The translations under genes and the position numbers were made by a program. 62,157 bases of DNA from a virus, in IMG/VR virus record IMGVR_UViG_3300025294_000001; one strand, 5' to 3'. Below the pieces are notes generated by a model that had not been told where the DNA came from, did not search any database, and worked only from the letters and a program-made list of their open reading frames with translations. Below, in pieces: positions 4,086 through 48,969 of the stretch. Numbering within the stretch: position 1 is the stretch's first letter; every line of letters begins with the position of its first letter.

Positions 4086-4122
4086 TGTCCTAAATCGGTC
4101 ACAGTTTGCAAGTACCTAATTG
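4086..4122 (+). promoter_or_regulatory. phage-specific promoter, class M, copy 1
   Basis: TGTCCTAAAT-N11-TGCAAGTACCTAATTG. The TGTCC to TGCAAG offset is exactly 21 nt. Confidence 0.6.
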
Positions 4123-4149
4123 TAAAACAACTTACAGGAGGTACTTACA

Positions 4150-4908
4150 ATGAAAGTAGAAGAATTAGTATATGGATATAAAGGAAATGAAACTTATTTA
4201 ACGTTATATCTCAGCAAAGTTAGTGTTGAGGACTTAAAAACATTACAGCACCGGGCAGGTGTCTACATGATTTATAGTAAAGAGGATGAATTAATGTATG
4301 TAGGGGAGACAACAAGTATTCCAAGACGAATGGCTAATCACTTATCTCCTAATCACAGTAAAAAAGAAATTACAAAAGAATCAGTTGGGTATATTCTCTA
4401 TGCTTATTTAAAATGTGACAGATATGAACGAAGTATTATTGAGGGGTTGTTAGTTCATAAGTATCAACCAGCTTTAAACTGTAATGATGAAATGAGGGGT
4501 GACGCATCCTCTAAAGTGGACAAAGCCGTTCAATATGACGCACTATACTACGCTAGAAATACTGATATTAGGTCGTTCGTTATTGCAAGGGCGTTAAACG
4601 TTGACAATGAATATATCAATAGCATTCGTAACTATGGTTGTTTTAACCATTCAGAACTACCTAACAACTACATCCCTAAAGTAATCATTACACAAGAATT
4701 TATTGATAATGCTGTTATTTCAAGAGAACCTATAAACCAAACGGTATTCAATCAAATTCGAGAATTGATTGAAGAAGGTTCTATGAAGAAAGTTGAGATC
4801 GCACGAAAGTTCGGGATTTCCCCAGCTTCTATGACACGTATGTACCATTTGGACACTAATAAGTATCGAAAGTGGGAGGAACAACGAACAGGAAAGGCGG
4901 TAGCTTAA
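4150..4908 (+). CDS. GIY-YIG nuclease with C-terminal HTH (free-standing homing-endonuclease-like)
   Basis: GVYMIY...LMYVGET, then PRRMANH (Arg), then ERSIIEGLL...ALN (Glu/Asn), in GIY-YIG order. C-terminal KKVEIARKFGISPASMTRM looks like an HTH. Confidence 0.7.
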   Translation: MKVEELVYGYKGNETYLTLYLSKVSVEDLKTLQHRAGVYMIYSKEDELMYVGETTSIPRRMANHLSPNHSKKEITKESVGYILYAYLKCDRYERSIIEGLLVHKYQPALNCNDEMRGDASSKVDKAVQYDALYYARNTDIRSFVIARALNVDNEYINSIRNYGCFNHSELPNNYIPKVIITQEFIDNAVISREPINQTVFNQIRELIEEGSMKKVEIARKFGISPASMTRMYHLDTNKYRKWEEQRTGKAVA

Positions 4909-5054
4909 TGACAAGAGAAGAAAAAGTGAAACGTCTCATTGACTTAATTGAACAAGTGGAGGGTGTAAAAGTTGCACCTGACCACTTTGTTAACATGTCT
5001 GACGAACAGTTAGAAGAGGAAATCGAATGGTATGACTACTTAATGACTAAATAA
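4908..5054 (+). CDS. hypothetical small acidic protein
   Basis: ATG 4908 overlaps the upstream TAA (TAATG coupling) and is in frame with track ORF 4872. Confidence 0.5.
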   Translation: MTREEKVKRLIDLIEQVEGVKVAPDHFVNMSDEQLEEEIEWYDYLMTK

Positions 5055-5062
5055 TTTCACGT

Positions 5063-5095
5063 ACCGTACCTTTAATAAAAAGGTGCGGTTTTTCT
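5063..5095 (+). terminator. rho-independent terminator
   Basis: 9-bp stem ACCGTACCT/AGGTGCGGT (one G-U pair) followed by a T-run. Confidence 0.65.
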
Positions 5096-5096
5096 T

Positions 5097-5133
5097 TGTC
5101 TCAAAATAGGTTTGACATGCAAGTACCTAAGTG
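5097..5133 (+). promoter_or_regulatory. phage-specific promoter, class M, copy 2
   Basis: TGTCTCAAAA-N11-TGCAAGTACCTAAGTG, 21-nt offset. Confidence 0.6.
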
Positions 5134-5157
5134 AAGTTCACTTTTGGAGGTATTTGT

Positions 5158-6129
5158 ATGTATACATTAAATTCATTTTTTGCTGGTGCAGGTGGTTTTG
5201 ATTTAGGATTCTTACAAGCTGGTTTTAAAATAGTTGGGGCTTATGAGTGGGATTCCTTTGCTGTAGAAAGCTACAAAGCAAACATTGATCCAGGGATTGA
5301 AGTTACAGATGTTAATGAATTAACTGGTGCGGATTTAAAGAAAGCTGACGTTTGGACATTCGGCTTCCCATGTCAGGATTTATCTAATAATGGGTGTAAA
5401 ACTGGTATTATAGATGGTTACCGTTCTAGGACATTCTTTGAGATTATGAGATTACTGGACGAGGTAGAAGAAAAGCCATCTATCTTATTAGCTGAGAACG
5501 TCAGAGGATTAAAGAAGTATCTTCATATATTAGAAGAAGAGTATGATAAGGCTGGCTATAAAATGTACTACACTCTTTACAATAGTAAATGGTGGGGTGT
5601 GCCACAAAGCCGTGACAGATATTTTGTGATTGGTGTTAGAAAAGATATTGCTAGTACATTCCAGTTCCCTGAGGAACAGCATGACTTTGTACCAGTTCTA
5701 TATGATTTCCTAGAAGATGATAATAGTGTACCTGTCAATTTATATATGGAACGTCCTTTAAATTACATTGAGTTAGGCATGGAGGGCGAGGCTATTATGA
5801 TTCGTGAAGCGGTCAAGAAAGGCTATAACCTAGCTAATATTGGCGACACGGTAAATATCACGTATCCGAATAGTAAAACGAGACGTGGACGTATTGGAAA
5901 GCAAATCTCACAAACTCTTTCTACTGGACTAGAACATGTAATCATAACTAAGGATATGAGGGCAAGACGATTTACACCGAGAGAGTACGCACGATTACAG
6001 GGATTCCCTGAATCATATAAACAAGTAGTCTCAAATACTCAGTTCTATAAACAACTAGGTAACGCAGTCACAGTACCAGTAGCTTTCGCTATAGCGGTAC
6101 AAATAAAACAATTCTTAGCCAACTCTTAA
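5158..6129 (+). CDS. DNA (cytosine-5)-methyltransferase
   Basis: Motifs in canonical order: FAGAGG (I), FPCQDLS (IV), ENV (VI), QSRDR (VIII), GNAV (X). ATG 5158 follows the SD GGAGG. Confidence 0.9.
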   Translation: MYTLNSFFAGAGGFDLGFLQAGFKIVGAYEWDSFAVESYKANIDPGIEVTDVNELTGADLKKADVWTFGFPCQDLSNNGCKTGIIDGYRSRTFFEIMRLLDEVEEKPSILLAENVRGLKKYLHILEEEYDKAGYKMYYTLYNSKWWGVPQSRDRYFVIGVRKDIASTFQFPEEQHDFVPVLYDFLEDDNSVPVNLYMERPLNYIELGMEGEAIMIREAVKKGYNLANIGDTVNITYPNSKTRRGRIGKQISQTLSTGLEHVIITKDMRARRFTPREYARLQGFPESYKQVVSNTQFYKQLGNAVTVPVAFAIAVQIKQFLANS

Positions 6130-6147
6130 CAGGGTTGGTTTTTCTTT

Positions 6148-6184
6148 TGTCCTAATTTTGCCACCAATTGCAAGTACCTAATTG
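6148..6184 (+). promoter_or_regulatory. phage-specific promoter, class M, copy 3
   Basis: TGTCCTAATT-N11-TGCAAGTACCTAATTG, 21-nt offset. A terminator hairpin lies just upstream (6118-6145). Confidence 0.6.
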
Positions 6185-6210
6185 TAACAACAATACAAGG
6201 AGGTATTTAC

Positions 6211-6720
6211 ATGATAGGACATAGAAGAGTACGAGTTTATGAGGACAACGGGCAAATGAAGGAAACGGATGTTTACTTGCCAAACATTAAGGACATTGTA
6301 GGATTCCTGAATGGTACATGGAACTTTAGTATGTTTGATGATTGTTTCGAGGGCAAATCTAAACTAGGTGACATTGACGCTTCAATAGAGTTACACGGTC
6401 ACACTTTAGTAATTGAATTTAAACGAGATCGTACAGCACTTACTACTGGTCAAATTGTAAAAGCTATCCGACAAGCAAAGCATAGCAATATCACTACTGT
6501 ATTTGTATTCGGTCATACGAACCGACCTGAGGAATACTTAGTTTTCTCACCTAACAACTTACAAGGTAGCGGTATTAAAAAGTGTGACACTATCACTCTT
6601 AGCAAAGTATTTAAGAATTGGAATGATTGGGCTTGCAAGAACTCATTAACAAGTCGTCATGACAATGATTGGACTATTGCCAAACGATACCTAAATGCTG
6701 TTGGTGGAGGGAAGAAATAA
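6211..6720 (+). CDS. hypothetical protein with a PD-(D/E)xK-like motif (possible nuclease)
   Basis: GDIDASIE...LVIEFKRD fits the D...E-x-K spacing. Sits directly downstream of the C5 methyltransferase. Confidence 0.35.
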   Translation: MIGHRRVRVYEDNGQMKETDVYLPNIKDIVGFLNGTWNFSMFDDCFEGKSKLGDIDASIELHGHTLVIEFKRDRTALTTGQIVKAIRQAKHSNITTVFVFGHTNRPEEYLVFSPNNLQGSGIKKCDTITLSKVFKNWNDWACKNSLTSRHDNDWTIAKRYLNAVGGGKK

Positions 6721-6923
6721 TGAATACAGTACGTGAAATTATAGAGGCTAAATTAGAAAACGGTGTTCAGACATTTTCGGCACAAGAAGTGGCACATCTT
6801 TTAAATCAGATTCGAGTAAATGAAGAAGGACTTAAAACATTAAACGCCACACGTCGTAAGCGTGATGAACTGAAAGCTAAATTAGAAGGCTTGTTATCAG
6901 CACATAAGGAACTAAAGAAATGA
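6720..6923 (+). CDS. hypothetical coiled-coil protein
   Basis: ATG 6720 overlaps the upstream TAA and is in frame with track ORF 6669. Confidence 0.5.
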   Translation: MNTVREIIEAKLENGVQTFSAQEVAHLLNQIRVNEEGLKTLNATRRKRDELKAKLEGLLSAHKELKK

Positions 6924-7135
6924 GAATAGATTGGTTGTTCGTTGGACTATGGACAGGCTTAATTATTACACTTACTCTTTTGTTCTTATGCTGTTATGCA
7001 TTATATCAGGAATCAGAAGAGTGCCACAATAGAGGCGGTAAGATGGTTGAAACAGGTGATACCTCAACAATCATTACTTATGTAAACAATATGCCAATTA
7101 TATCAACATATGAAGAAACGGAGTGTACAAGATAA
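6920..7135 (+). CDS. small membrane protein
   Basis: ATGA start/stop overlap with the upstream gene. TM segment WLFVGLWTGLIITLTLLFLCCYALY. Confidence 0.5.
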   Translation: MRIDWLFVGLWTGLIITLTLLFLCCYALYQESEECHNRGGKMVETGDTSTIITYVNNMPIISTYEETECTR

Positions 7136-7296
7136 TGAAATTAAAATACACACAAGTACAAATTGTTAAACATGCGTTACAGCATTATATCGAACGTCCT
7201 GAGGCTACTGATAAGGACTTAGTGAAAGAAAAGAACTTACTAGCTAAATTCACAAAAGAAGCTGAGGAAATGAAAACTAAATACGAAATCAATTAG
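7135..7296 (+). CDS. hypothetical small protein (53 aa, below the ORF-track cutoff)
   Basis: TAATG coupling to the upstream ORF. Open to TAG 7294-7296, followed by a terminator-like hairpin. Confidence 0.4.
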   Translation: MKLKYTQVQIVKHALQHYIERPEATDKDLVKEKNLLAKFTKEAEEMKTKYEIN

Positions 7297-7403
7297 GCGT
7301 GGGGGAAACCTCACGTCTTTCTTTTTGTACCTGTATTAGTGCTGGGTTTCTTGACCTTATTTATTAGAACTGACTGTGGTTCTAACATATGGGAGGGAAA
7401 TGA

Positions 7404-9155
7404 ATGAAGATAAAAGGGCATGTAAAAGGAAAGACCTATGACGAGTGGAAATTCCGCATGGGTGAGATAGATTCGTTCTTATATATCGTAAAAGAGAAAG
7501 CCCTACAAGGCAAAGAAATGTCACGAGACGTACTAGAGAAGGCTATTAAGCTGAAAGAGGAACGGAAACAATGTGAACGTGTTTTACGATGTTGGACATC
7601 TACACTTGAATTTATGTACGAATACTTTTCAGATGATGCGAACCCTGAAAATGAGAACAACTTAATTCCTGAGGGCATTAGCATTTTAGATGCACCAAAA
7701 TTTCACCAAGAATTAACAGACTATCTTGACGACTACATGAGAGATCATGCGAAGAGAATAGCTTGGTCAGTTCCTCGTGGTCACGCTAAATCAACTTATC
7801 TATCAAATATGTATCCACTGTATAACATAGTTTATAACTTACGTAAATTCATAGTTATCTTATCAGAAACTCATGATGGTGCGAAACAGTTCACTGACTT
7901 TGTAAATAACCAGTTAAAGGATAATAAGAAGTTACGTGAGGACTTTGGCGAACTGATGGGTGAAAACAGTCGTGAGAATAAAAAGGATAATGCTGAGAAA
8001 TTCGTCACAAAGAACAATATCATGGTTGCCTCAGGTTCTACACAGAAGCAATTACGTGGTATGCGATTTTTGAACGCTAGACCCGATATGATTATTCTGG
8101 ACGATTTAGAGAGTGAGAAGAATACGAACACACCTGAGTTAAGGCAGAAGAACTTAACGTGGTATACAAAGACGGTTAACCCACTTGGACAGCCTCCACG
8201 GTATGACAAGGAAGGCAACTGTATAGGCGGTACAGCATTTATATACATGGGAACATTAGTTAACCCTAATGGATTGTTACCATATGTAATGAATCGTGCT
8301 GACTTCAAATCTAAACGTTACTCAGCAATTGTTAACGCACCTGAACGTGTAGACCTATGGGAAGAATACGAACGTATTTATCGTGATTTAGATAATGAAG
8401 ATCGTAAGGACGAAGCGGAACAATTCTATTTCACTAATCAATCGGAAATGGATAAAGGAACAGAAGTATTGTGGCACGATAGAATGCCGTATTACAAACT
8501 TATCCAAGAAAAGGTAAACGTTGGAACAAGGGCTTTCAACTCAGAGTATCTTAATATACCTTACTCAGACGAGGACGCTATTTTCAAACAAGATAGTTTC
8601 ACTTGGTATGACGATAAGGACTTATACGATGAACAAGGTCGGATGATTCCGCTTGACTTGTACGGCTTTTGGGATATTGCCATTACAGGTAAAGGAGATT
8701 ACAACGCTATCGTTACACTAGGGCGTGATAGACGGACAGGCATATTCTATGTCATTGATGCATGGGCAGGTAAGGTAAATATGCATGAGGCACTGAGAAT
8801 CTGTGAACAGAAAATACTAGAATATGAACATCATACTTTTGGAGTCGAGACTATACAAGCACAATGGAGTATGTTCCAACAGTTACGTGTAAATCTGTCA
8901 AAGAAGAACTATTTCAAGACACGATTAAAACAGTATAATCCTCGTACTAAGAAAGAGATTCGTATTGAAGCATTAGAACCACTAGTAGAAGCTGGACAGA
9001 TTAGATTCAAAAGACAACATAGATTACTAATTGAAATGCTAGAACTATTTCCACAGCATGAACACGATGACTTACCTGATGCTATTGCATCTTGTGTAGA
9101 GGTCGCTGGTAATCACAGAAAACGTATGTTTACAAATAAACCTAAGGGCTGGTGA
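7404..9155 (+). CDS. terL: terminase large subunit
   Basis: 583 aa, directly upstream of the portal gene. P-loop-like VPRGHAKST, Walker-B-like MIILDDLE, C-terminal acidic nuclease-like HEHDDLPDA. Confidence 0.85.
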   Translation: MKIKGHVKGKTYDEWKFRMGEIDSFLYIVKEKALQGKEMSRDVLEKAIKLKEERKQCERVLRCWTSTLEFMYEYFSDDANPENENNLIPEGISILDAPKFHQELTDYLDDYMRDHAKRIAWSVPRGHAKSTYLSNMYPLYNIVYNLRKFIVILSETHDGAKQFTDFVNNQLKDNKKLREDFGELMGENSRENKKDNAEKFVTKNNIMVASGSTQKQLRGMRFLNARPDMIILDDLESEKNTNTPELRQKNLTWYTKTVNPLGQPPRYDKEGNCIGGTAFIYMGTLVNPNGLLPYVMNRADFKSKRYSAIVNAPERVDLWEEYERIYRDLDNEDRKDEAEQFYFTNQSEMDKGTEVLWHDRMPYYKLIQEKVNVGTRAFNSEYLNIPYSDEDAIFKQDSFTWYDDKDLYDEQGRMIPLDLYGFWDIAITGKGDYNAIVTLGRDRRTGIFYVIDAWAGKVNMHEALRICEQKILEYEHHTFGVETIQAQWSMFQQLRVNLSKKNYFKTRLKQYNPRTKKEIRIEALEPLVEAGQIRFKRQHRLLIEMLELFPQHEHDDLPDAIASCVEVAGNHRKRMFTNKPKGW

Positions 9156-9193
9156 TTATTCACCGCCCTTTTTTAATTTAAGGAGGAAAAGGA

Positions 9194-12174: not shown

Positions 12175-12250
12175 TGGGGTGTAACTCAGTTGGTAGAGTA
12201 ACTGGCTGTTAACCAGTAAGTCGTAGGTTCAAGTCCTACCATCCCAGCCA
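12175..12250 (+). tRNA. tRNA-Asn(GTT)
   Basis: Hand-folded cloverleaf: acceptor TGGGGTG/CATCCCA, anticodon stem ACTGG/CCAGT, loop CTGTTAA, T-loop TTCAAGT, encoded CCA. Confidence 0.8.
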
Positions 12251-12251
12251 T

Positions 12252-12326
12252 TGGAGAGTAGCTTAACGGTAAAGCGGTGTCTTGATAAGGCAAGGAGTGT
12301 AGGTTCGATTCCTACCTTTCCAACCA
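12252..12326 (+). tRNA. tRNA-Ile(GAT)
   Basis: Cloverleaf with anticodon loop TTGATAA, T arm GTAGG-TTCGATT-CCTAC and encoded CCA. There is a G-A mismatch at the top of the anticodon stem. Confidence 0.7.
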
Positions 12327-12332
12327 ATACAT

Positions 12333-12403
12333 GGGGATATGGTGAAGAGGTATCACGTAACACTGTCTATGTTAAATCAGGGGTTCAATTCCCCTTATCC
12401 TCG
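12333..12403 (+). tRNA. tRNA-Asp(GTC)
   Basis: Cloverleaf with anticodon stem TAACA/TGTTA and loop CTGTCTA. Position 37 is T, which is unusual. No encoded CCA. Confidence 0.65.
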
Positions 12404-12444
12404 TTGTAATAACCTTGTGAGTGCCTTAGGACAAACTCTCATAT

Positions 12445-12539
12445 GGAAAGTTGTCAGAGTGGCTTATTGTGATTGGTTGCTAACCAATTAGGGCGATTAA
12501 TAAAAACCCTCACAGGTTCGAATCCTGTACTTTCCTCCA
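12445..12539 (+). tRNA. tRNA-Ser(GCT), class II
   Basis: Anticodon stem ATTGG/CCAAT, loop TTGCTAA, 23-nt variable arm (stem AGGG/CCCT with a 13-nt loop), T arm ACAGG-TTCGAAT-CCTGT, encoded CCA. Confidence 0.7.
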
Positions 12540-12543
12540 ACTT

Positions 12544-12619
12544 GGGGTATTAGTATAACGGCTTATTATGACTGGCTTCCAACCAGTAGACAAGGGTTCG
12601 ATTCCCTTATGCCCCTCCA
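12544..12619 (+). tRNA. tRNA-Gly(TCC)
   Basis: Anticodon stem ACTGG/CCAGT, loop CTTCCAA, T arm AAGGG-TTCGATT-CCCTT, encoded CCA. The D stem is weak. Confidence 0.7.
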
Positions 12620-12623
12620 ATAT

Positions 12624-12697
12624 AAGTTCTTAGTGTAGTGGTAACACGTCAGATTCCAAACCTGAAATCGTGGGTTCGATTCCTACATAACTTGCCA
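12624..12697 (+). tRNA. tRNA-Trp(CCA)
   Basis: Loop TTCCAAA and encoded CCA. Mismatches in the acceptor stem (C6-U67) and at anticodon-stem pair 31-39 (A-C). Confidence 0.55.
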
Positions 12698-30612: not shown

Positions 30613-30837
30613 ATGGATATTGAAAAATTCAATAGCGTATTAGAAACACCGTACATGAATGTGGCTGAAAAACATGCATTTATTATAGGCATGGGGCTAT
30701 CAAAGGGGATTAAGATTAAACACATGCTAGTGTACATACAACTTGAATGGACTGGTAAACTACAAGATTTAGATAATAAAGCACTATTACAGCAAGTAAT
30801 AGCGGATACTGATGAACTGGCTTCTACCTTAGGGTAG
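30613..30837 (+). CDS. hypothetical protein
   Basis: 74-aa ORF, SD AAGGGGG, terminator at its 3' end. Confidence 0.55.
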   Translation: MDIEKFNSVLETPYMNVAEKHAFIIGMGLSKGIKIKHMLVYIQLEWTGKLQDLDNKALLQQVIADTDELASTLG

Positions 30838-30848
30838 AGGCTTTTTTT
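30821..30848 (+). terminator. rho-independent terminator
   Basis: Stem CTTCTACC/GGTAGAGG (one G-U pair) followed by T7. Confidence 0.65.
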
Positions 30849-30876: not shown

Positions 30877-30913
30877 TGTCCTAAAACAAGGGATTAATGC
30901 AAGTACCTAAGTG
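30877..30913 (+). promoter_or_regulatory. phage-specific promoter, class M, copy 4
   Basis: TGTCCTAAAA-N11-TGCAAGTACCTAAGTG, 21-nt offset. Confidence 0.6.
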
Positions 30914-30940
30914 TAAGGGAAATTGAAAGGATGATTAATA

Positions 30941-33860: not shown

Positions 33861-33897
33861 GGTACTGATACTGATATTGGTATTAGTACCTTTTTTA
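33861..33897 (+). terminator. rho-independent terminator built from palindromic-hexamer repeats
   Basis: Stem GGTACTGATAC/GTATTAGTACC (one G-U pair) followed by T6. Confidence 0.65.
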
Positions 33898-33899: not shown

Positions 33900-33936
33900 T
33901 GTCCCAAAATAAGTGATTAATGCAAGTAATTAATTG
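33900..33936 (+). promoter_or_regulatory. phage-specific promoter, class M, copy 5
   Basis: TGTCCCAAAA-N11-TGCAAGTAATTAATTG, 21-nt offset. Confidence 0.55.
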
Positions 33937-33947
33937 AGGTGATTGAA

Positions 33948-35241: not shown

Positions 35242-35277
35242 AATCCTAGTCTATAAAATGACTGGGATTTTCTTTTT
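35242..35277 (+). terminator. rho-independent terminator
   Basis: 10-bp stem AATCCTAGTC/GACTGGGATT followed by a T-run. Confidence 0.7.
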
Positions 35278-35725
35278 ATATCAAGGGTTTTGCCTTCATG
35301 CAAAATTTATTTTCTACCAATGTTTGGAGTGGTCAGACAACTAAACGTCAGACGTGTCAACGTTCAACGATTTAGACAGATAAACAAATAAAGTGAAACC
35401 TCGTGAGGTTCACTGTTTTCCCCTATTTACACCTACTCACCTACGTTATATACTCAATAGTGTACTACACGAGGTTACAAGATAATACCCACGATTACAG
35501 TGTGCGACACAGTTCGACACGATTCGACAAACTACAAGGTCGAACCTTCCCAACTGTCGCAAAAACTCAGGACAAACAACCTAATAAAAAAATGAGGTCT
35601 ATTCATAGGCTTGTTTAGTTATGCCTTTTTCAAGGCATTTCTCCTTAGCCCCTTTATGCCCTTTTTACCGAACGTGTGTTCTATTTTAGGTTAAAAAATT
35701 TTAATTAAAAAACTTTTGTCCTGCA

Positions 35726-35762
35726 TGTCCTAATCCGTGTCCTATCTGCAAGTACCTAAGTG
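35726..35762 (+). promoter_or_regulatory. phage-specific promoter, class M, copy 6 (triple TGTCCT boxes)
   Basis: TGTCCTAATC-N11-TGCAAGTACCTAAGTG, 21-nt offset. Extra TGTCCT boxes at 35717 and 35738. Confidence 0.6.
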
Positions 35763-35800
35763 TAAAGCAAATAAAACACTACAAAGGTGGAAACAAAACT

Positions 35801-36550
35801 ATGAAAACTTACTTTGAAATCGTTGAAAACAAATCTTACCGTGAATTAACTGTCGCTGAAAAGCTAACAATTCAAGAACGCCAAACTGAACTAGTTGTAC
35901 GTTGGCAAGATGAATCAAACGAAAGTAAGAAAGAAGAGATTTTCGATGAACTTCATGCTTCAATCAAAGGCTTAATTAAAGGAATGGCTTACCGTCAAGC
36001 GGAAAAATCATTCTCAGTTGAACAAGAAGACTTTGAAGGAATCATGTTCCTAGTACTATCTGAAACTCTTAATGGTAATGGTGACGAGGAACAAATTGAC
36101 CTTTACGGACAACGCTTAATCACGTTTGACCGTTCAATGGACAAGCCCTTTCAACCAATCTTTATCACTAATATTAAGAACGTTTTAAAGATGATGTACC
36201 GTCAAAAAGGATATGACGTTCACGAGACTACATTGCATGAGGCGAACCGCTTAGATTCTCCTTCACCTGACGATGAAACTGTAACGATGGCTGACACGAT
36301 TGAAACTAGTCACAGCTTTACAGTGGATGTTGAACATACGGTGGTGACAGAAGAAATCCTTACAGACCTGTTCGGAAATGACATTAGAAAGAAAACAATA
36401 GTTCATATGTCTGTACAAGGATTTAAGCGTAATGAAATTGTTTCAGCCCTAATCAACAAGGGTCAATCTACTGACGCTGTAGCGAAACAAATTAACCGTA
36501 CTATGAGTCAGTTTAAGACACATTACCGTGAAGTGATGCGAGGCATGTAA
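35801..36550 (+). CDS. sigma-70-family-like transcription factor
   Basis: 249 aa. C-terminal region-4-like HTH (GFKRNEIVSALINKGQSTDAVAKQINRTMSQFK). Size and position resemble phage middle-gene sigma factors such as SPO1 gp28. Confidence 0.5.
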   Translation: MKTYFEIVENKSYRELTVAEKLTIQERQTELVVRWQDESNESKKEEIFDELHASIKGLIKGMAYRQAEKSFSVEQEDFEGIMFLVLSETLNGNGDEEQIDLYGQRLITFDRSMDKPFQPIFITNIKNVLKMMYRQKGYDVHETTLHEANRLDSPSPDDETVTMADTIETSHSFTVDVEHTVVTEEILTDLFGNDIRKKTIVHMSVQGFKRNEIVSALINKGQSTDAVAKQINRTMSQFKTHYREVMRGM

Positions 36551-38072: not shown

Positions 38073-38124
38073 AACAAACCTAAATGAGTTGGGAAGTGTT
38101 TTAGGTTTCACTTCCTGACATCAT

Positions 38125-38205
38125 GGGGGAATAGCTTAACGGAAAAGCATTGCGTGTACAGTTAAATAATAGCAAAGACTAGGGGTTCGAATCCCCTTTC
38201 CCTCG
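38125..38205 (+). tRNA. tRNA-like element with a 16-18-nt anticodon loop
   Basis: Canonical acceptor (GGGGGAA/TTCCCTC), D arm (GCTT/AAGC) and T arm (AGGGG-TTCGAAT-CCCCT). The anticodon stem TTGC/GCAA encloses GTGTACAGTTAAATAATA. Confidence 0.45.
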
Positions 38206-38206
38206 T

Positions 38207-38238
38207 GGGCATACCTTCAAACGGTATGTCCTTTTTTT
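38207..38238 (+). terminator. rho-independent terminator
   Basis: 9-bp stem GGGCATACC/GGTATGTCC followed by T7. Confidence 0.7.
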
Positions 38239-38263
38239 GTGTCCTAATGCAAGTAACTAAGTG
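38227..38263 (+). promoter_or_regulatory. phage-specific promoter, class M, copy 7
   Basis: TGTCCTTTTT-N11-TGCAAGTAACTAAGTG, 21-nt offset. The -35-like box overlaps the terminator 3' arm. Confidence 0.55.
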
Positions 38264-38275
38264 AGGTGATTATAG

Positions 38276-41933: not shown

Positions 41934-42074
41934 ATGGATGAAAAGAAAACATTGTCTGATACTAAGAAAAACCGTATTAAAGGATTCTTAAAACTAGGGT
42001 TTCTACCTAAGGAAATTGCCAAGCTGGAAAAAGTCACCATACGTCAAGTGTACAGTATAAAAGAAGAAATGTAG
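41934..42074 (+). CDS. small HTH-like protein (46 aa, below the ORF-track cutoff)
   Basis: ATG 41934 after GGTGAGGCAA, with a terminator directly downstream. LPKEIAKLEKVTIRQVYSI looks like an HTH. Confidence 0.4.
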   Translation: MDEKKTLSDTKKNRIKGFLKLGFLPKEIAKLEKVTIRQVYSIKEEM

Positions 42075-42105
42075 AGATTGGTTTTTATAACCAGTCTCTT
42101 TTTTT
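42074..42105 (+). terminator. rho-independent terminator
   Basis: Stem GAGATTGGTT/AACCAGTCTC (one G-U pair) followed by T7. Confidence 0.7.
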
Positions 42106-42141
42106 GTCCTAAAAGTCGTCTGAAATGCAAGTAACTAAGTG
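42105..42141 (+). promoter_or_regulatory. phage-specific promoter, class M, copy 8
   Basis: TGTCCTAAAA-N11-TGCAAGTAACTAAGTG, 21-nt offset. Confidence 0.6.
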
Positions 42142-42199
42142 TAAGGCAATGACACACCGCCTTAATAAACTTAAAACAAATTTAAGGAGTGTACTTATT

Positions 42200-43122: not shown

Positions 43123-43543
43123 ATTTGAAGAATTAGAATTAGGACAATTAGTTGAACATGATATGGGGTTCATCGGTGAAGTTACTGAGTTACAGGAAAA
43201 CGAAACTCTAAAAATAGAGGTTACTAATTCAGGAACAAGTAATTACGAGGTTGGTTATGTATATTACGCTGACATTAATTATATTAAACGTATTGTTGCA
43301 CCAGCACCAAACAAACAAAAATTAACTGTTGAGGTTGATGTAACAGGTTTGGAGAAGGTTGCTGAAATTGGTCAACAAGTAGTATTGCTTGCTGAGGATA
43401 TGGCTGACCTACGTAAAGAAGAATCAGTGTTCAAAGCTGAATTAGGTAATGGTATTACTTTTGAGGGTACAAAATCTGACTTTAAAGTGTTCATGGAAGG
43501 CGTTACAGAAATGTTTGCTGTCGCTAAAAACATGGAACTGTAA
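43115..43543 (+). CDS. hypothetical protein
   Basis: 142-aa ORF overlapping the tdk stop. Confidence 0.55.
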   Translation: MVKFEELELGQLVEHDMGFIGEVTELQENETLKIEVTNSGTSNYEVGYVYYADINYIKRIVAPAPNKQKLTVEVDVTGLEKVAEIGQQVVLLAEDMADLRKEESVFKAELGNGITFEGTKSDFKVFMEGVTEMFAVAKNMEL

Positions 43544-43555
43544 TAGGAGGGCATT

Positions 43556-44464: not shown

Positions 44465-44801
44465 TAATCAAGTTCTATTTGATAAAGGATATGAAACGCT
44501 TGCTACTAAATTTGAGGCTGTAATGGACAAAGCACCTGAATTAGAAAGTGAACTTACTGACCTAGTAATTTTCGTTACAGATGAACTTGACACTGGTGAT
44601 GTACGTGCTGAGGATAATTACGAACGTGGTCGTGAAGATGGTCGAGACGAGGGTTACCAAGAAGGTTATGACGATGCTGAATTTGAGTACTCAGATAAGT
44701 ACGATGAAGGCTTTGAAGACGGACGTTCTGAGGGTTACGAAGAAGGCTATCAAGAAGGATACGAGTCAGGTCGTGAAGAAGGCGAAAGCATTTTACACTA
44801 G
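44451..44801 (+). CDS. highly acidic repeat protein (EGY repeats)
   Basis: RGREDGRDEGYQEGYDD...EGFEDGRSEGYEEGYQEGYESGREEGE. D/E-rich throughout. Confidence 0.55.
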   Translation: MRFYDNQVLFDKGYETLATKFEAVMDKAPELESELTDLVIFVTDELDTGDVRAEDNYERGREDGRDEGYQEGYDDAEFEYSDKYDEGFEDGRSEGYEEGYQEGYESGREEGESILH

Positions 44802-44829
44802 TACTGGTACTAATATTAATACTAACTTT
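44797..44829. repeat. palindromic-hexamer repeat block D
   Basis: ACTAGTACTGGTACTAATATTAATACTAACTTT, overlapping the stop of ORF 44451. Confidence 0.7.
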
Positions 44830-44891
44830 GGGGGCGTGAAGTTAACCACGCCTTAATAAAAAATAAGGTAAAACACAGGAGGAAATAACAG

Positions 44892-45200
44892 ATGGATATG
44901 GTTCAATTCTTTTCAATGCTTCAATTAATTGGTGGGGTAATTCTTTCAGTCGGATACATTCCGCAAATCATTAAAATGATTAAAACTCGTTCGGTAGATG
45001 ATTTCAGTAAAATGTATTTAGGTTCTATTTTCTTTGGTATCGTGTTAATGGAAATGTACGCTGTTTATATGTATCTTGTAATTGATGTAGCTGAAATGCA
45101 ATCATTCTTCATTACTAATACAGCCTCTACTATTTTAAGTGGTACTGAGTTTGTATTACTATTAATGTTCGCAACTAAGAAACCTAAGAAACTTAAATAG
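44892..45200 (+). CDS. PQ-loop (SemiSWEET-like) three-TM membrane protein
   Basis: 102 aa, three hydrophobic segments. TM1 carries YIPQIIKMIKTRSVDDFS, matching the PQ-loop signature. Confidence 0.55.
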   Translation: MDMVQFFSMLQLIGGVILSVGYIPQIIKMIKTRSVDDFSKMYLGSIFFGIVLMEMYAVYMYLVIDVAEMQSFFITNTASTILSGTEFVLLLMFATKKPKKLK

Positions 45201-45210
45201 TATTAAAATT

Positions 45211-45247
45211 GACGTTGGTACTGATACTAGTACTAACGTCTTTTTTT
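45211..45247 (+). terminator. rho-independent terminator built from hexamer repeats
   Basis: Stem GACGTTGGTAC/GTACTAACGTC (one G-U pair) followed by T7. Confidence 0.7.
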
Positions 45248-45254
45248 GTTTATA

Positions 45255-45291
45255 TGTCCTAAAACTCTATGATTCTGCAAGTACCTAAGTG
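45255..45291 (+). promoter_or_regulatory. phage-specific promoter, class M, copy 9
   Basis: TGTCCTAAAA-N11-TGCAAGTACCTAAGTG, 21-nt offset. Confidence 0.6.
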
Positions 45292-45320
45292 TAAGGCAAA
45301 TGAGATAAGGGGTGACTAAA

Positions 45321-45539
45321 TTGTCAAACAAGCCAACAGTTAGAAAGATAGTACAGGACGCTTTATTTAACCATCCTGTTAAGGAAGTAAGTCATGAACA
45401 TAATACTTTGGTGTTAGTTTTAAATGCTGGGTATGAACTTGAAATTTCTGCTGAGTACAACCATTGCGACGAAACAGCCGAATTACATGTTGACCTTTTC
45501 AAAAATGAGAGAACTCATGTTGGGAATTATCAGGTTTGA
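45321..45539 (+). CDS. hypothetical protein
   Basis: Frame of track ORF 45312. TTG 45321 has better spacing to the SD AAGGGG than GTG 45312. Confidence 0.45.
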   Translation: MSNKPTVRKIVQDALFNHPVKEVSHEHNTLVLVLNAGYELEISAEYNHCDETAELHVDLFKNERTHVGNYQV

Positions 45540-45748
45540 GTAGGCTAGAACAGGTTGAAAACCCAATGGTTCGACCTATTAAAGATGTTCAAAGAGTGGG
45601 TGTAAGTTTCTGTGTTCACTGTAGCATAAGGCTATTTGCTGACGAGGAATTTCTTACTTTAGATGATGAACATTTTTGTGACACTCAATGTTTAAGAGAT
45701 TACTTAGGTGTTAGAAGAATAGAAGGGTGGGAACTACATGAAAAATAA
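45536..45748 (+). CDS. hypothetical Cys-containing small protein
   Basis: 70-aa ORF, overlap-coupled. CVHC...CDTQC motifs. Confidence 0.45.
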   Translation: MSRLEQVENPMVRPIKDVQRVGVSFCVHCSIRLFADEEFLTLDDEHFCDTQCLRDYLGVRRIEGWELHEK

Positions 45749-46013
45749 GATCATTGACGGTATTGCTACTGGTTTTAAGTTTCTATTAAACGTAATTGGT
45801 GTAACTATTGGAATTGCTATTCTACTGGCTTATCACTTTGGGATTCCGTATTTATTTTACAAATTCCTTAACAGTGGTGACACGGCTTATTCATTCTATT
45901 TAGCTGTATGGTTTGGTACTAGTTATGTACTGGAACTATGGCACAGACGCACGTTAAAGAAACAGTTAAAGCTATACAAAGAAATTGACGACATTATGAA
46001 AGGGAGATTCTAA
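45738..46013 (+). CDS. membrane protein (two TM segments)
   Basis: 91-aa ORF with hydrophobic segments VIGVTIGIAILLAYHF and FYLAVWFGTSYVL. Confidence 0.5.
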   Translation: MKNKIIDGIATGFKFLLNVIGVTIGIAILLAYHFGIPYLFYKFLNSGDTAYSFYLAVWFGTSYVLELWHRRTLKKQLKLYKEIDDIMKGRF

Positions 46014-46198
46014 TGGGTGAAGAACTAACATTGTCTCAACGATTAGAAGAACTGGCAAAGGAACTAGATGAAATTGCTTATCTTCCTGAGGACTATCATT
46101 ACAGTGATTTAGGTGACTGGTTCGCTAGTTCAGGTAGTGGCGACATTGATTGGGTAGCAAGTAAATTAAGAGAAATGGCAAAGGAGATAGAAAAATAA
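46013..46198 (+). CDS. hypothetical acidic protein
   Basis: 61-aa ORF, TAATG coupling. Confidence 0.45.
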   Translation: MGEELTLSQRLEELAKELDEIAYLPEDYHYSDLGDWFASSGSGDIDWVASKLREMAKEIEK

Positions 46199-46521
46199 TG
46201 AGAATCGTATTACAAGGAAGTTGCACACCTAGTCAAATGGGTAAAGCTGTACAGGAGATTTTAGAAAACACTTTAGAAAAGGCTGAGGCGAAAGGGAAGA
46301 AATACCCTATTCACAATGCTGTAATTGAATTTAACTTAAACGTAGTAGGCGAGGAAAAGCCTGTTTTAGTTATGGACGACGAAAGAGGGGCTATGCTTAC
46401 AATTCATACTGGAATTGAAAAGGGTAAGCTAACTGAATACGTTGAACCTGACCGTGAAGAACTGTTATCTAAATTCAATGAAATGATGGATAACGCAACA
46501 GGTGAAGCCAATGATGAATAG
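46198..46521 (+). CDS. hypothetical protein
   Basis: 107-aa ORF, TAATG coupling. Confidence 0.5.
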   Translation: MRIVLQGSCTPSQMGKAVQEILENTLEKAEAKGKKYPIHNAVIEFNLNVVGEEKPVLVMDDERGAMLTIHTGIEKGKLTEYVEPDREELLSKFNEMMDNATGEANDE

Positions 46522-46690
46522 GTTTTTCAATGTAGTTTGGTTAATAGTATTTTCAATGACTTTAGTGTTAAGTATCCAAAAGGGTAGTGCTGTTTGGATT
46601 GTTATTGACTCATTAATTATCCTTTTAAATTCTGTGGCTTTATTAGGAACTTCCAAAGTGACAGCAAATATCAAAGTAACAAAAGATTAA
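46502..46690 (+). CDS. small membrane protein
   Basis: 62-aa ORF with two hydrophobic segments. Confidence 0.45.
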   Translation: MKPMMNRFFNVVWLIVFSMTLVLSIQKGSAVWIVIDSLIILLNSVALLGTSKVTANIKVTKD

Positions 46691-46695
46691 AAAGA

Positions 46696-46726
46696 AACCC
46701 ACTGGCTTATTTGCTGGTGGGTTTTT
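46696..46726. terminator. bidirectional terminator between convergent genes
   Basis: 10-bp stem AACCCACTGG/CTGGTGGGTT flanked by an A-run and a T-run. Overlaps the 3' end of the reverse-strand gene. Confidence 0.65.
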
Positions 46727-47129
46727 CTGCTTTCTTTTTAAGTGTTCTCTTACTTCTCTTTCTAATTGACATTAAGTAGTCGTCCTGTTCAGGTAACATA
46801 CTACCACATAACTCTATTAGTTGTTGGTCTTGCTTCATAATTTCCTCAGTTTCAGGTGGCATAGTAAATTCAATTAAATCATTTAAATCTGTAATTCTTA
46901 ATGTAACAGCTATCACTATTAAATGTGGAACGCTAATTGTAGTTCTTTTCATGTTAGCTAACTCAGACAGCGACGCTGTACGGATACCTGTTAAATGACT
47001 TAATTCAGTCATGCTTATTCCTCTATCTTTTAAAATTTCCCCTAACTTACATCTAACTGTAAAGTACGGAAACCTCTCTAAATTCTTCTTAACGTGGTCA
47101 GTCGTATTTTCATGCACTCTAACTATCAT
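46707..47129 (-). CDS. XRE/Cro-CI family HTH transcriptional regulator (repressor candidate)
   Basis: LGEILKDRGISMTELSHLTGIRTASLSELANMKR is a classic XRE HTH. One of only four reverse-strand genes. Its promoter contains the 16-bp palindrome. Confidence 0.7.
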   Translation of the reverse strand: MIVRVHENTTDHVKKNLERFPYFTVRCKLGEILKDRGISMTELSHLTGIRTASLSELANMKRTTISVPHLIVIAVTLRITDLNDLIEFTMPPETEEIMKQDQQLIELCGSMLPEQDDYLMSIRKRSKRTLKKKAEKPTSK

Positions 47130-47171
47130 ATGTATTACCTCACTTAATTAATTAGTTTTCCTTACGACTCT

Positions 47172-47201
47172 ATTATATTACCGTATATCGTAAAATGTCA
47201 A
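47172..47201 (-). promoter_or_regulatory. host-type promoter of the XRE gene with an embedded operator-like palindrome
   Basis: Minus strand reads TTGACA-18 nt-TATAAT. Most of the spacer is TTACGATATACGGTAA (47178-47193). Followed by CGTAAGG and the conserved leader. Confidence 0.65.
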
Positions 47202-47209
47202 ATACAATT

Positions 47210-47246
47210 TGTCCCAAAATGCCTCCAAACTGCAAGTACATAAGTG
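47210..47246 (+). promoter_or_regulatory. phage-specific promoter, class M, copy 10
   Basis: TGTCCCAAAA-N11-TGCAAGTACATAAGTG, 21-nt offset. Divergent from the XRE promoter. Confidence 0.6.
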
Positions 47247-47259
47247 AGGAGGTTTCTAT

Positions 47260-47400
47260 ATGACAAAGAAAAAACAAAAGAAAACCATTGGTGTTATGAC
47301 ACAAAACAGAGGAACAATGCCACCACCAGCAAGGGCTGACAAAGTGAAAAAAGGCAAGGGTTCATATAACAGAAAAGAAGGAAAGAGAGTGGAATGGTAA
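47260..47400 (+). CDS. small basic protein with an ArfA-like KKGKGSYNRK motif (46 aa, below the ORF-track cutoff)
   Basis: SD GAGGAGG 7 nt upstream of ATG 47260. ADKVKKGKGSYNRKEGK resembles the KKGKGSYMRKGK segment of E. coli ArfA as I recall it. Confidence 0.45.
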   Translation: MTKKKQKKTIGVMTQNRGTMPPPARADKVKKGKGSYNRKEGKRVEW

Positions 47401-47942
47401 TGAAAATTGCACTGGTCGGAAAAATGAGATCAGGAAAGGATACGGTAGCGAAATTCTTTATTGATAATGAAGATGCAAACCAAATAGCGTTCGGTGATGA
47501 AATTAAAAAGATAGCACGACGTTACTTCCCTGAAATTGTAGCAAAGGGCAAACCAAGAGAGTTATATCAAGTAATTGGACAAGAAATGAGAAAGATTGAC
47601 CCTGATGTGTGGGTTAAGGCTTTAGATAGAACATTAACAAATTTAATGGGTTATGGAGAAACAAGTTTTGTTATTTCAGATGTTCGGCAAATGAATGAAT
47701 ATCATTACTTGAAAGAAATGGGCTTCACAGTTATTAAAGTTGAGGCTGACGATGAATTACGAAAAGAAAGAATTTATCAGTCAGGTGATTTATTTGAACC
47801 TGAACATTTCTATCATGAGACAGAAACAACGGTTGAGGATATACCTTGTGACTACTTAGTAACTAATAATACAACATTGGCTGATTTATACGACCAAATA
47901 TTTTATATACACAATGAACTTAAAGAGGGTGAGAAAGTATGA
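47394..47942 (+). CDS. P-loop nucleotide kinase (dNMP-kinase-like)
   Basis: Walker A LVGKMRSGKDT near the N-terminus. About 180 aa. The start could instead be ATG 47400. Confidence 0.55.
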   Translation: MVMKIALVGKMRSGKDTVAKFFIDNEDANQIAFGDEIKKIARRYFPEIVAKGKPRELYQVIGQEMRKIDPDVWVKALDRTLTNLMGYGETSFVISDVRQMNEYHYLKEMGFTVIKVEADDELRKERIYQSGDLFEPEHFYHETETTVEDIPCDYLVTNNTTLADLYDQIFYIHNELKEGEKV

Positions 47943-48268
47943 CAAATAAATATGAACAAGCGTACAAGCTGGATACCGAAAGTGGTGTGACAGCTTTTTT
48001 AAATGATTACCCTAAACTAGCTGAGGCGAGATTTTATTCAAGTGATTTTACTATTAGTGATTTCTTACTGGACTTCCATTTCTCAGTTAATAAGGCATTA
48101 ACAGAAAGACAGCGACAAGTTATTGAATTAACTTTCTATAAAGATATGAGACAGGTTGACGTTGCGAGAGAACTTAATTTATCACAGCAAACTGTACAGG
48201 AACATACTCAGAAAGCTATTAAGAATTTAGCGACGTATCACATGATCTTAAAGGAACGAGGTGAATAG
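47939..48268 (+). CDS. sigma-70 region-4-like HTH protein (late-transcription factor candidate)
   Basis: LTERQRQVIELTFYKDMRQVDVARELNLSQQTVQEHTQKAIKNL fits the region 4.2 pattern. Only 109 aa. Confidence 0.5.
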   Translation: MTNKYEQAYKLDTESGVTAFLNDYPKLAEARFYSSDFTISDFLLDFHFSVNKALTERQRQVIELTFYKDMRQVDVARELNLSQQTVQEHTQKAIKNLATYHMILKERGE

Positions 48269-48641
48269 TTTGGGTGTCAAAGCTGACTTTGAACAGGAAG
48301 TAGAACGGCTATTAGCTATTAAAGAGATTCTACCTTTAGAGACTCGTATTAAACAGGTTGAGGACTTGACTGAGTGGTATTACAAACAAACTGGACGCCA
48401 CTATAACAACAGTTTCTTTCTTGATATGTTAGGGACTTATTTACTGGCTGATATGCTGAGAGATAAAGGAACTCATAAAGTAAAGAAAACTGAGTATCCT
48501 GTCCTATCTCATACTCAACAGAAGTTGAGAAACAGACGTGAAAACCGTGTAGGTGACGAAAACATGGACTTTATCAAATTAAAGAAGGTACATAATCACC
48601 CTAACGCTTTCAAAAAGACAACTCAAAATAAAGATGAATAG
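48261..48641 (+). CDS. hypothetical protein, translationally coupled to the region-4-like gene
   Basis: 126-aa ORF overlapping the upstream gene by 8 nt. Confidence 0.5.
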   Translation: MNSLGVKADFEQEVERLLAIKEILPLETRIKQVEDLTEWYYKQTGRHYNNSFFLDMLGTYLLADMLRDKGTHKVKKTEYPVLSHTQQKLRNRRENRVGDENMDFIKLKKVHNHPNAFKKTTQNKDE

Positions 48642-48652
48642 GAGAGGTACAG

Positions 48653-48838
48653 ATGGGACTTACTGAAATTTTAACAGTTGTATTCATAGTTTTAAAATTA
48701 ACAGGTGTAATTGATTGGTCATGGTGGCTGGTTCTACTTCCTGAATTACTTGCAATCGGCTTATATATCATTGTAGTAACTGTAGGAGGTATCCTTACTG
48801 GTAAAGCTATTAAACATACATTCAAGAAACGGAAGTGA
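48653..48838 (+). CDS. small membrane protein (two TM segments)
   Basis: 61 aa with SD GGAGAGG. ILTVVFIVLKLTGVIDWSWWLVLLPELLAIGLYIIVVTVGGIL. Confidence 0.5.
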   Translation: MGLTEILTVVFIVLKLTGVIDWSWWLVLLPELLAIGLYIIVVTVGGILTGKAIKHTFKKRK

Positions 48839-48932
48839 TAGTATGTCAAATATCTTTTGTGGTATCTTTGCATTTTTCTTTTTCTTAATATGGTTCATGA
48901 TTCCAAGGGACGAGTAACTTTTACAGGTTGCT

Positions 48933-48969
48933 TGTCCTTTTTTTACGTTTATTTGCAAGTACATAAGTG
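48933..48969 (+). promoter_or_regulatory. phage-specific promoter, class M, copy 11
   Basis: TGTCCTTTTT-N11-TGCAAGTACATAAGTG, 21-nt offset. Confidence 0.55.

Follow-up and report, generated by a model that had tools for sequence, protein, structure and literature searches.

The window analyzed here is a stretch of 62,157 nt, the IMG/VR virus record IMGVR_UViG_3300025294_000001. Its ends are identical over exactly 127 nt (1–127 and 62031–62157), which makes it a circularly closed assembly of ~62,030 bp (about 62.03 kb). The window carries eleven copies of an asymmetric bipartite DNA motif and two sigma-like genes, at 35801 and 47939. A preliminary description had interpreted the motif as a phage-specific promoter class read by an element-encoded sigma-like factor. 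Judged by its sequence, the element is a temperate Bacillus phage-plasmid represented by a complete circular contig. It is assigned as a temperate phage-plasmid because homologues of the open reading frame (ORF) at 35801 all sit on 57–64 kb contigs, in Bacillus cereus, Bacillus altitudinis, Bacillus licheniformis, Priestia megaterium and Neobacillus niacini assemblies. Two of these contigs are finished plasmids, and the B. licheniformis one (NZ_CP154900.1) is recorded as circular. The motif-headed units span 4086–7318 and 30877–52555. The copies are as follows, with scores in bits from a weight matrix built on the 11 sites.

4086–4123, + strand: copy 1, 52.3 bits; heads the unit of a GIY-YIG/helix-turn-helix (HTH) nuclease gene (ATG 4150).
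5097–5134, + strand: copy 2, the TGTCTC variant, 48.5 bits; directly after terminator 5063–5089; heads a C-5 cytosine DNA methyltransferase gene (ATG 5158).
6148–6185, + strand: copy 3, 52.0 bits; directly after terminator 6117–6140; heads small ORFs at 6211–7135, the unit ending at terminator 7295–7318, before the terminase gene terL.
30877–30914, + strand: copy 4, 54.4 bits; after terminator 30819–30842; heads DnaD-like, DnaC-like and DnaB-like genes.
33900–33937, + strand: copy 5, 40.3 bits; after terminator 33861–33890; heads small ORFs and the primase gene (34253).
35726–35763, + strand: copy 6, the best copy, 59.9 bits; heads the sigma-like gene 35801.
38227–38264, + strand: copy 7; the terminator that follows tRNA-Tyr has this copy's TGTCC as its 3' arm; heads DNA polymerase A (polA), Cas4-like exonuclease and RuvC genes.
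42105–42142, + strand: copy 8, 56.2 bits; after terminator 42073–42099; heads a thymidine kinase and nucleotide kinase unit.
45255–45292, + strand: copy 9, 55.3 bits; after terminator 45211–45240; heads small ORFs at 45321–46690.
47210–47247, + strand: copy 10, 49.3 bits; divergent from the sigma-A promoter of the repressor gene (47201–47172, − strand); its unit holds a small ORF, a deoxynucleoside monophosphate kinase gene, the sigma region 4 protein gene 47939 and then 48261.
48933–48970, + strand: copy 11, 53.8 bits; TGTCC lies within the stem of terminator 48905–48940; heads genes 49002 to 52517, including a cell-wall hydrolase.

The copies form a discrete family. The weight matrix gives them 40.3–59.9 bits; with both strands of the window scanned, no other site exceeds 9.7 bits, and this gap (40–60 versus 9.7 bits) sets the family apart. 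The downstream block TGCAAGTAMMTAAGTG has 11 matches with up to two mismatches against 0.20 expected, and no shuffle reached 11. All 11 coordinates in the preliminary description are exact. As it stated, every copy is intergenic and on the + strand, and the start of TGTC(C/T) is exactly 21 nt from that of TGCAAGTA in 11/11. With TGTCCT at motif positions 1–6 and CAAGTA at positions 24–29, the spacer is 17 nt and its sequence is unconserved. The motif has no dyad symmetry, and 16 unconserved nt separate its blocks. An Rfam scan found no family at the motif sites, only tRNAs. A full-text literature search for TGCAAGTA returned only unrelated papers, and we know of no Bacillus sigma consensus that the motif resembles.

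Some details of the motif need adjustment. Each copy had been said to contain TGTCC(T/C)AAAA; a TGTCC-type box is indeed present throughout, but exact TGTCCYAAAA is found in only 5/11, the copy at 5097 reads TGTCTC, and an A/T-rich run (AAAA, AATT or TTTT) takes the place of the constant AAAA. GTAAGG follows the motif in 4/11 copies only, and the remaining copies have a G plus purines. The placement upstream of start codons stands, but the proposed distance of 25–75 nt does not: likely starts lie 12–59 nt past motif position 37, i.e. 48–95 nt past the T of TGTCC. These starts are preceded by Shine-Dalgarno sequences. Listed ORF starts inside the motif (5131 and 42125) are spurious N-terminal extensions.

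The copies stand where promoters would be expected. An intrinsic terminator lies directly upstream of 8/11 copies, and in two (38227 and 48933) TGTCC is inside the terminator stem. All copies are on the coding strand at the starts of transcription units, as is typical of sigma-70-type promoters. The genes behind them are, as first proposed, the replication and DNA-metabolism set, including the polA, dnaB, primase, RuvC and kinase units and the sigma-like gene 35801 itself. We scanned the 11 terminator-to-start-codon intervals for sigma-A-like promoters and found none at ≥9/12, so that without the motif the polA, dnaB, primase and kinase genes would be promoterless. In the terminator upstream of polA (38207–38231), the 3' arm ends in ATGTCC in all relatives of the polA-upstream alignment and the 5' arm covaries, suggesting that TGTCC doubles as terminator stem and promoter upstream element.

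The spacing of the motif relative to the ribosome-binding sites constrains its register. Three copies (33900, 38227 and 47210) have a Shine-Dalgarno sequence whose first base is motif position 38, one base past the motif, so the transcript 5' end must lie within the motif. This agrees with the suggested −10 box CAAGTA (positions 24–29), which would place the start at about positions 35–37. TAAGTG was rejected as the −10 on two grounds: it would put the start within or past the Shine-Dalgarno sequence of three units, and the block differs between lineages. Also rejected was a promoter for a T7-like single-subunit polymerase, since the window has no ORF of suitable size or family.

A second class of promoters in the window is of sigma-A type. 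Strong examples (TTGACA-17-TATGAT or TATAAT, 11–12 of 12) cluster at 54.6–62 kb. Weaker sigma-A-like promoters at 1250 and 1760 (10 of 12), with promoter-like sequences near 597 and 3695, extend the class over the origin to ~3.9 kb. The class drives ParA, the recombinase, DUF3846 and DUF3961 proteins, a BLIP/superinfection-exclusion (Sie)-like lipoprotein and many small ORFs. These had been called host-type early promoters. The sigma-A type is right, but they do not serve a classical early lytic set; the genes are mostly for plasmid maintenance and anti-restriction. The observation that GTAAGG also follows the sigma-A −10 was accurate: it occurs 6–7 nt past the −10 hexamer at ≥10 sigma-A-type promoters (at least ten) and 7 nt past CAAGTA.

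54612, 58472, 59099, 59528, 59939 and 1760, and 47201 on the − strand: promoters with GTAAGG at 6–7 nt.
597, 3695 and 61947: promoter-like sequences ahead of GTAAGG.
54647, 58509, 59135, 59564, 59975, 1796, 61947, 597 and 3695: copies of GTAAGG.

Transcripts of both promoter classes would open with (N)GUAAGG, and the shared sequence is possibly a 5' stabilizer or an initiation element. Four near-identical sigma-A promoter cassettes, (A/T-rich)-TTGACAATCAAAAGTGT...TATGAT, lie at 59099–59127, 59528–59556, 59939–59967 and 60990–61018, at intervals of ~0.4–1 kb before small ORFs of unknown function.

Relatives of the element carry the same motif. We scanned IMG/VR and one genome per species (185,579 species genomes) for the pattern and found many relatives, at 68–92% nucleotide identity, with multiple copies. 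The preliminary description had recommended a search of related genomes, and copies occur at syntenic positions in B. licheniformis, Priestia and metagenome relatives. On the circular B. licheniformis plasmid NZ_CP154900.1 there are 14 copies, each in a syntenic position and on the + strand. When only the anchor GCAAGT-N3-TAA is required, TGTC(C/T) is found at offset 21 in 66/70 distinct instances in relatives and at offset 20 or 22 in none. The remaining four are chance matches in coding regions. Two blocks at a fixed distance with an unconserved spacer of ~16–18 nt, the layout of a sigma-70-type promoter, are thus seen in 11/11 copies of the window and 66/66 genuine copies of relatives. In the polA-upstream alignment, the motif blocks are conserved and the spacers and flanks have diverged.

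More distant relatives, with sigma proteins 46–50% identical, keep TGTCC-N16-TGCAAGT and the TG at positions 36–37. Their third block changes, to ACATG or AACTG in Priestia and TCnTATG in a metagenome contig. The family-wide core is TGTCC-N16-TGCAAGT only; the third block, TAAnTG, varies and TAAGTG is lineage-specific. The motif is specific to mobile elements in the sense that matches in species genomes cluster in phage-plasmid-like contigs and small islands rather than in dispersed host regulons. It is not limited to one phage, being carried by a family of ~60-kb Bacillus phage-plasmids and by chromosomal islands.

Among cultured phages, Bacillus phage vB_BauS_KLEB27-1 (OM654379) has a variant, ATGTCCCGATT-N11-CATGCGACTGTA, in two copies in 40 kb. 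The variant shares the TGTCC upstream box, a fixed spacing and a downstream TAAGTGTAAGGG; it differs in having the downstream block TGCGACTGTA at offset 23, and the PolA proteins are 40% identical. One copy is directly upstream of the annotated sigma gene gp51, which lies between primase and polA genes, as does ORF 35801. An hhalign comparison of the 35801 family with gp51 (176 amino acids) detected no similarity.

The best candidate reader of the motif is ORF 35801, with the following features at and upstream of it.

35801–36550, + strand: sigma-like gene, 249 amino acids.
35669–35682: LexA (Cheo) box CGAACGTGTGTTCT, of putative function, 44 nt upstream of the sigma gene's motif copy.
35426–35454, + strand: sigma-A-like promoter TTTACA-17-TATACT, ~350 nt upstream of the sigma-like gene; conserved in a relative at each of our loci L016 and L001 and in the B. 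licheniformis plasmid.

A profile of the 39 closest relatives of ORF 35801 matches the sigma factor 8x6g_H in PDB over residues 15–110 (region 2; E = 3.8e-4). A further 13 remote relatives (E from 5e-8 to 8e-4) came from an exhaustive HMMER search through 1.84 billion representative proteins. Ten of these were scanned against Pfam. Sigma70_r2 is found at the N-terminus in three and Sigma70_r4 at the C-terminus in two; one protein has both, and P0075 and P0079 are remote relatives that match Sigma70_r4. The iterated profile A4 matches 8x6g_H at E = 3.1e-17, with profile positions 22–125 aligned to chain residues 6–107 (region 2) and 128–217 to 158–245 (region 4), in collinear order. A4 also matches the sigma-H structure 3mzy (E = 8.6e-13, profile 74–224). 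Further matches are to SigB, SigF, WhiG, FliA and SigA and to an RpoS chain, those to SigA, SigB, SigF, FliA and RpoS being through the region 2 segment. The sigma-like character first proposed for the protein is thereby supported over both regions, and ORF 35801 is probably a very divergent sigma-70-family protein. A word-indexed search with the family profile A1 found no relatives beyond the lineage, and tblastn of the protein against 72,556 PLSDB plasmids (E ≤ 10) found two plasmids of this lineage only.

The region upstream of ORF 35801 suggests how its expression might begin. GAAC-N4-GTTC occurs at only two sites in the window, one being the box at 35669. Of eight relatives examined, six have a LexA box, with differing N4, ahead of the motif copy of the sigma gene, at a start-to-start distance of 56–116 nt. 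CGAAC-N4-GTTC boxes in relatives, labeled by locus, are listed here.

L151, 14599 and 14630: two boxes.
L154, 9810: one box.
L155, 9836: one box.
L016, 2506: one box.

The promoter at 35426 is a possible source of the first sigma transcripts. A conserved AGTGTACTACACGAGG follows it. As first described, three TGTCCT boxes precede the gene, at 35717, 35726 and 35739; the middle one belongs to copy 6. The 450-nt non-coding stretch from the primase to the sigma-like gene (35271–35725) holds repeated GTCAGAC, GTTCGACAC, GATTCGACAA and GGTCGAAC units, which may be origin iterons.

We propose that these sites act as promoters for the lytic ('middle') genes of replication and DNA metabolism and are read by host core RNA polymerase carrying an element-encoded alternative sigma factor, most probably ORF 35801. 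In this model TGTCC(T) would be the −35 box, bound by sigma region 4, and (TG)CAAGTA, past the fixed 17-nt spacer, would be the −10 box, bound by region 2. Transcripts would begin in the third block (TAAnTG), 6–8 nt past the −10. The sigma gene's own motif copy implies positive feedback. The LexA box and the sigma-A-like promoter upstream of the gene suggest that DNA damage probably supplies the first sigma molecules, and that these would in turn activate the 11 terminator-insulated units jointly. The unit headed by copy 10 would yield 47939 (with 48261), which is proposed to activate a single, different promoter before terL for the structural and lysis genes. Placement, conservation, register and the 35801 profile evidence agree with the promoter class first suggested, and we regard this explanation as a whole as probable.

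That ORF 35801 itself is the reader we hold with moderate confidence. It is favored because it has segments similar to both region 2 and region 4, which a bipartite promoter would need, and because the conserved LexA box and sigma-A-like promoter would place it atop an SOS-triggered cascade. The KLEB27-1 variant motif also precedes the syntenic sigma gene and not the 47939 homologue.

Several observations weigh against this explanation. ORF 35801 has no direct sigma assignment in Pfam, PHROG or NCBIfam; its NCBIfam matches are sub-threshold only (SigB 0.01, Sig-70_plancto1 0.059). The link to sigma factors needs a profile iterated with remote sequences and so carries a risk of profile drift. 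AlphaFold2 models have predicted local distance difference test scores (pLDDT) of 82 and 80.5, the full-length model showing two helical domains and a disordered linker. Foldseek searches with the full-length and N-terminal-domain models gave no match at E ≤ 0.001, with sigma chains among the non-significant matches only, and we therefore claim no structural support. The LexA box is absent in 2/8 relatives examined, and no sigma-A promoter at ≥8/12 overlaps it. A typical −10 element has a T at −7, and CAAGTA does not. Sigma–DNA contacts also do not account for the third block, which within a lineage is conserved as strongly as the other two. Finally, both sigma-like genes lie behind motif copies. 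In SPO1, the sigma genes behind middle promoters encode late factors, and by analogy the reader could be a different, early protein.

The second sigma-like gene and its neighborhood provide the first alternative.

47939–48268, + strand: 109-amino-acid sigma region 3/4-like protein; matches Pfam Sigma70_r4 (4e-11) and phrog_3512 'sigma factor'; aligns to FliA residues 139–231.
48261–48641, + strand: 126-amino-acid protein of unknown function, overlapping 47939.
7329–7363, + strand: candidate late promoter ACCTGTAT-N20-TTATTTA, between terminator 7295–7318 and the terL ATG at 7404.

The promoters might instead be read by 47939, perhaps as a two-subunit sigma with 48261, ORF 35801 then serving the late promoter. 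Among the window's proteins, only 47939 has a clear Pfam sigma domain, and its gene is itself behind the motif copy at 47210, beside the repressor gene. It is also more conserved in relatives (69–76% identity) than ORF 35801 (57–60%), matching a near-invariant motif. Every relative in which both genes could be checked has both, so co-occurrence does not separate them. Yet 47939 has no region 2, so it should be unable to read a −10 or melt DNA alone, and 48261 has no similarity to sigma region 2 that could make up for this. Searches of Pfam and NCBIfam gave no match for 48261, and no relatives of known function were detected. In the cultured phages with a 47939 homologue (KLEB27-1, 268TH002 and phi18-2), no TGTCC-type motif precedes that gene, and in KLEB27-1 the variant motif sits before the other sigma gene. 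We consider this alternative unlikely.

The 47939 protein fits better with the late genes. Proteins of the ArpU/RinA type, which are small and consist of region 4 only, usually act on one late promoter. The window has a candidate for such a promoter, which favors ORF 35801 over 47939 as reader of the 11 copies. The preliminary description noted that no motif copy precedes the structural and lysis block and took this to point to a separate late class. The absence holds, and a single, different sequence at 7329–7363 is the candidate late promoter for the 7.4–29 kb block. It is conserved, with its spacing unchanged, in five diverged relatives, and the window holds no second match to the full bipartite pattern. 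We propose that 47939 (with 48261) acts there. In NCBIfam, 47939 matches sigma70-ECF and ArpU (TIGR01637) below cut-off (ArpU 23.4 versus 43.1 bits). The weak ArpU match and the single promoter before terL recall ArpU, RinA and Xpf, small region 4-like proteins of temperate Firmicute phages that turn on one late promoter upstream of the terminase gene. That comparison concerns the late promoter and not the 11-copy motif, and 47939 is ~20 kb from terL on the circular map rather than adjacent to it.

A further alternative assigns the reading to the host, either through a host alternative sigma factor or through host polymerase redirected by a small protein from the sigma-A-driven region, as by T4 MotA/AsiA in Escherichia coli. 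Both sigma-like genes would then be late factors, as are SPO1 33/34. Motif copies do precede both genes, the chromosomal islands carry the motif with no sigma homologue in the sequence examined, and the sigma-A-driven region has many ORFs of unknown function. Against this reading stand the motif's unlikeness to the Bacillus consensus sequences known to us and the clustering of genomic matches in mobile elements, with no dispersed host regulon. The motif is moreover conserved together with the 35801 family across B. cereus group, B. licheniformis, Priestia and Neobacillus hosts. No transcription-factor domain was found among the sigma-A-driven ORFs, and the motif offers no TAnnnT −10 for sigma-A appropriation. 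We judge a host-based reader improbable.

The sites could also be something other than promoters, namely binding sites at which the Cro/CI-type repressor (46707) or another regulator silences lytic genes in the plasmid state. They resemble L5 stoperators and the SPbeta SPBRE in being asymmetric, present in about a dozen repeats and oriented uniformly with transcription in a temperate phage. They are also intergenic, and one adjoins the repressor gene. The L5 and SPbeta repeats are single short repressor sites that block or silence transcription, whereas the sites here are bipartite, with two blocks at a fixed distance, 16 unconserved nt between them and no dyad. They abut ribosome-binding sites in intervals with no other promoter to repress, which is not the setting of a stoperator. 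The repressor is only 45–54% identical among relatives while the motif is invariant, and the islands have the motif with no repressor homologue found in them. Silencing sites are thus very improbable. A DNA-level function in recombination, replication or packaging, for instance as targets of the serine recombinase 56103, whose homologue is the sole protein common to window and islands, is hardly credible given the strict placement of 11–14 coding-strand copies at 5' gene ends, after terminators and before Shine-Dalgarno sequences, which fits transcription and not res, att or pac sites.

The closest regulatory parallel to a promoter class read by ORF 35801 is SigN (ZpdN) of the B. subtilis plasmid pBS32, which is expressed from a LexA-repressed promoter and an autoregulated SigN-dependent promoter and which controls, among others, genes for DNA polymerase and nucleotide synthesis (Burton et al., 2019; PMC6751061). 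The SigN promoter consensus is TTTACGTTT...GATATAAT (PMC6751061). The two systems would share a sigma factor on a large prophage-carrying plasmid, LexA input, positive feedback and a regulon confined to the element. They differ in the promoter sequence (TTTACGTTT...GATATAAT versus TGTCC-N16-TGCAAGTA). The tblastn search of PLSDB, in which pBS32 is assumed to be included, found no homology of SigN to ORF 35801. In pBS32 the prophage region lies outside the SigN regulon; the present element, by contrast, is a complete phage, and its LexA box overlaps no recognizable sigma-A promoter.

Phage SPO1 also has sigma factors that replace sigma-A on host core polymerase, several near-identical middle promoters of fixed spacing, and a second sigma-like system for late genes (gp28, then gp33/gp34). 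SPO1 gp28 reads AGGAGA-N17-TTTNTTT. SPO1 is a large virulent myovirus in which gene 28 is transcribed early via sigma-A; the element here is temperate and plasmid-borne, and its sigma gene has its own promoter type. On these comparisons the motif system belongs to neither the SigN nor the SPO1 system and would represent a sigma lineage and a promoter specificity that are both new, within a familiar form of phage control. A literature search on phage-plasmid, Bacillus and sigma factor returned nothing on this family.

The other features of the element are as follows.

terL 7404, portal 9194, major capsid protein 13427, tape measure 17346, tail protein 23053, endolysin 27937: siphovirus-type structural and lysis module.
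DnaD-like, DnaC-like and DnaB-like proteins, primase, PolA, Cas4-like exonuclease and RuvC, plus nucleotide kinases: replication module.
ParA 54693, serine recombinase 56103 and the Cro/CI-type repressor: plasmid and lysogeny functions.
46707–47129, − strand: Cro/CI-type HTH repressor gene in a lysogenic-control context, with a perfect 12/12 sigma-A promoter at 47201–47172.

Seven tRNA genes are present in the window. Six (Asn, Ile, Asp, Ser, Gly and Trp) are clustered at 12175–12697 within the head-gene module, and tRNA-Tyr (38124–38206) is immediately upstream of the polA motif copy. A DndB-like protein (52554–53723, − strand), the C-5 cytosine methyltransferase behind motif copy 2 (5158–6129) and the BLIP/Sie-like lipoprotein in the sigma-A-driven region (2844–3422) are probably defense or counter-defense cargo. 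Megablast with 50,697 phage records as the database found no close relative, and among cultured phages the closest PolA is 40% identical. Related elements encode peptide-communication regulators, an AimR-like arbitrium receptor in KLEB27-1 (L153, 8448–9605) and a Rap family protein in the B. licheniformis plasmid (L151, 41310–42491). The window ORFs that were scanned gave no match to AimR or Rap.

The motif also occurs, at the 21-nt offset, in chromosomal loci of Bacillus sp. MYb209, Bacillus paramycoides, Bacillus sp. CH140a_4T, Bacillus manliponensis, Bacillus rhizoplanae, Metabacillus litoralis and Schinkia azotoformans. These islands hold 2–3 copies each (L072 and L046, which together are MYb209 contig 1, 496–512 kb; L088, L150, L063, L124, L142, L127 and L133). 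The MYb209 island, which was fully read, has a tyrosine recombinase-like integrase (recognized by eye from its translation), a gene for a 448-amino-acid helicase-like protein, small ORFs and a serine recombinase. Most other islands also have the serine recombinase. Homologues of 35801, 47939 and 48261 were not found in the 8–16 kb examined per locus. As a hypothesis only, the islands are satellites that could depend on a helper's sigma factor. A broader proposal is that the 35801 family, an orphan divergent sigma absent from Pfam and cultured phages, is the SOS-triggered, self-amplifying master switch of widespread ~60-kb Bacillus phage-plasmids, and that the sigma-less islands are satellites timing their own induction by the helper's sigma. 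We regard this full version as doubtful.

Within the reading of the motif as sigma-dependent middle promoters, the results provide a testable regulatory map for a widespread but uncharacterized group of phage-plasmids of the B. cereus group, B. licheniformis, B. altitudinis, Priestia and Neobacillus. The map comprises sigma-A-driven maintenance and anti-restriction genes, 11–14 sigma-dependent replication and DNA-metabolism units and one late promoter. It would give a function to a protein family so far annotated as 'hypothetical', and the motif with its sigma factor may offer a compact orthogonal promoter–sigma pair for Bacillus engineering. If the dependence also holds for the islands, they would be an example of satellites keyed to their helper's sigma factor.

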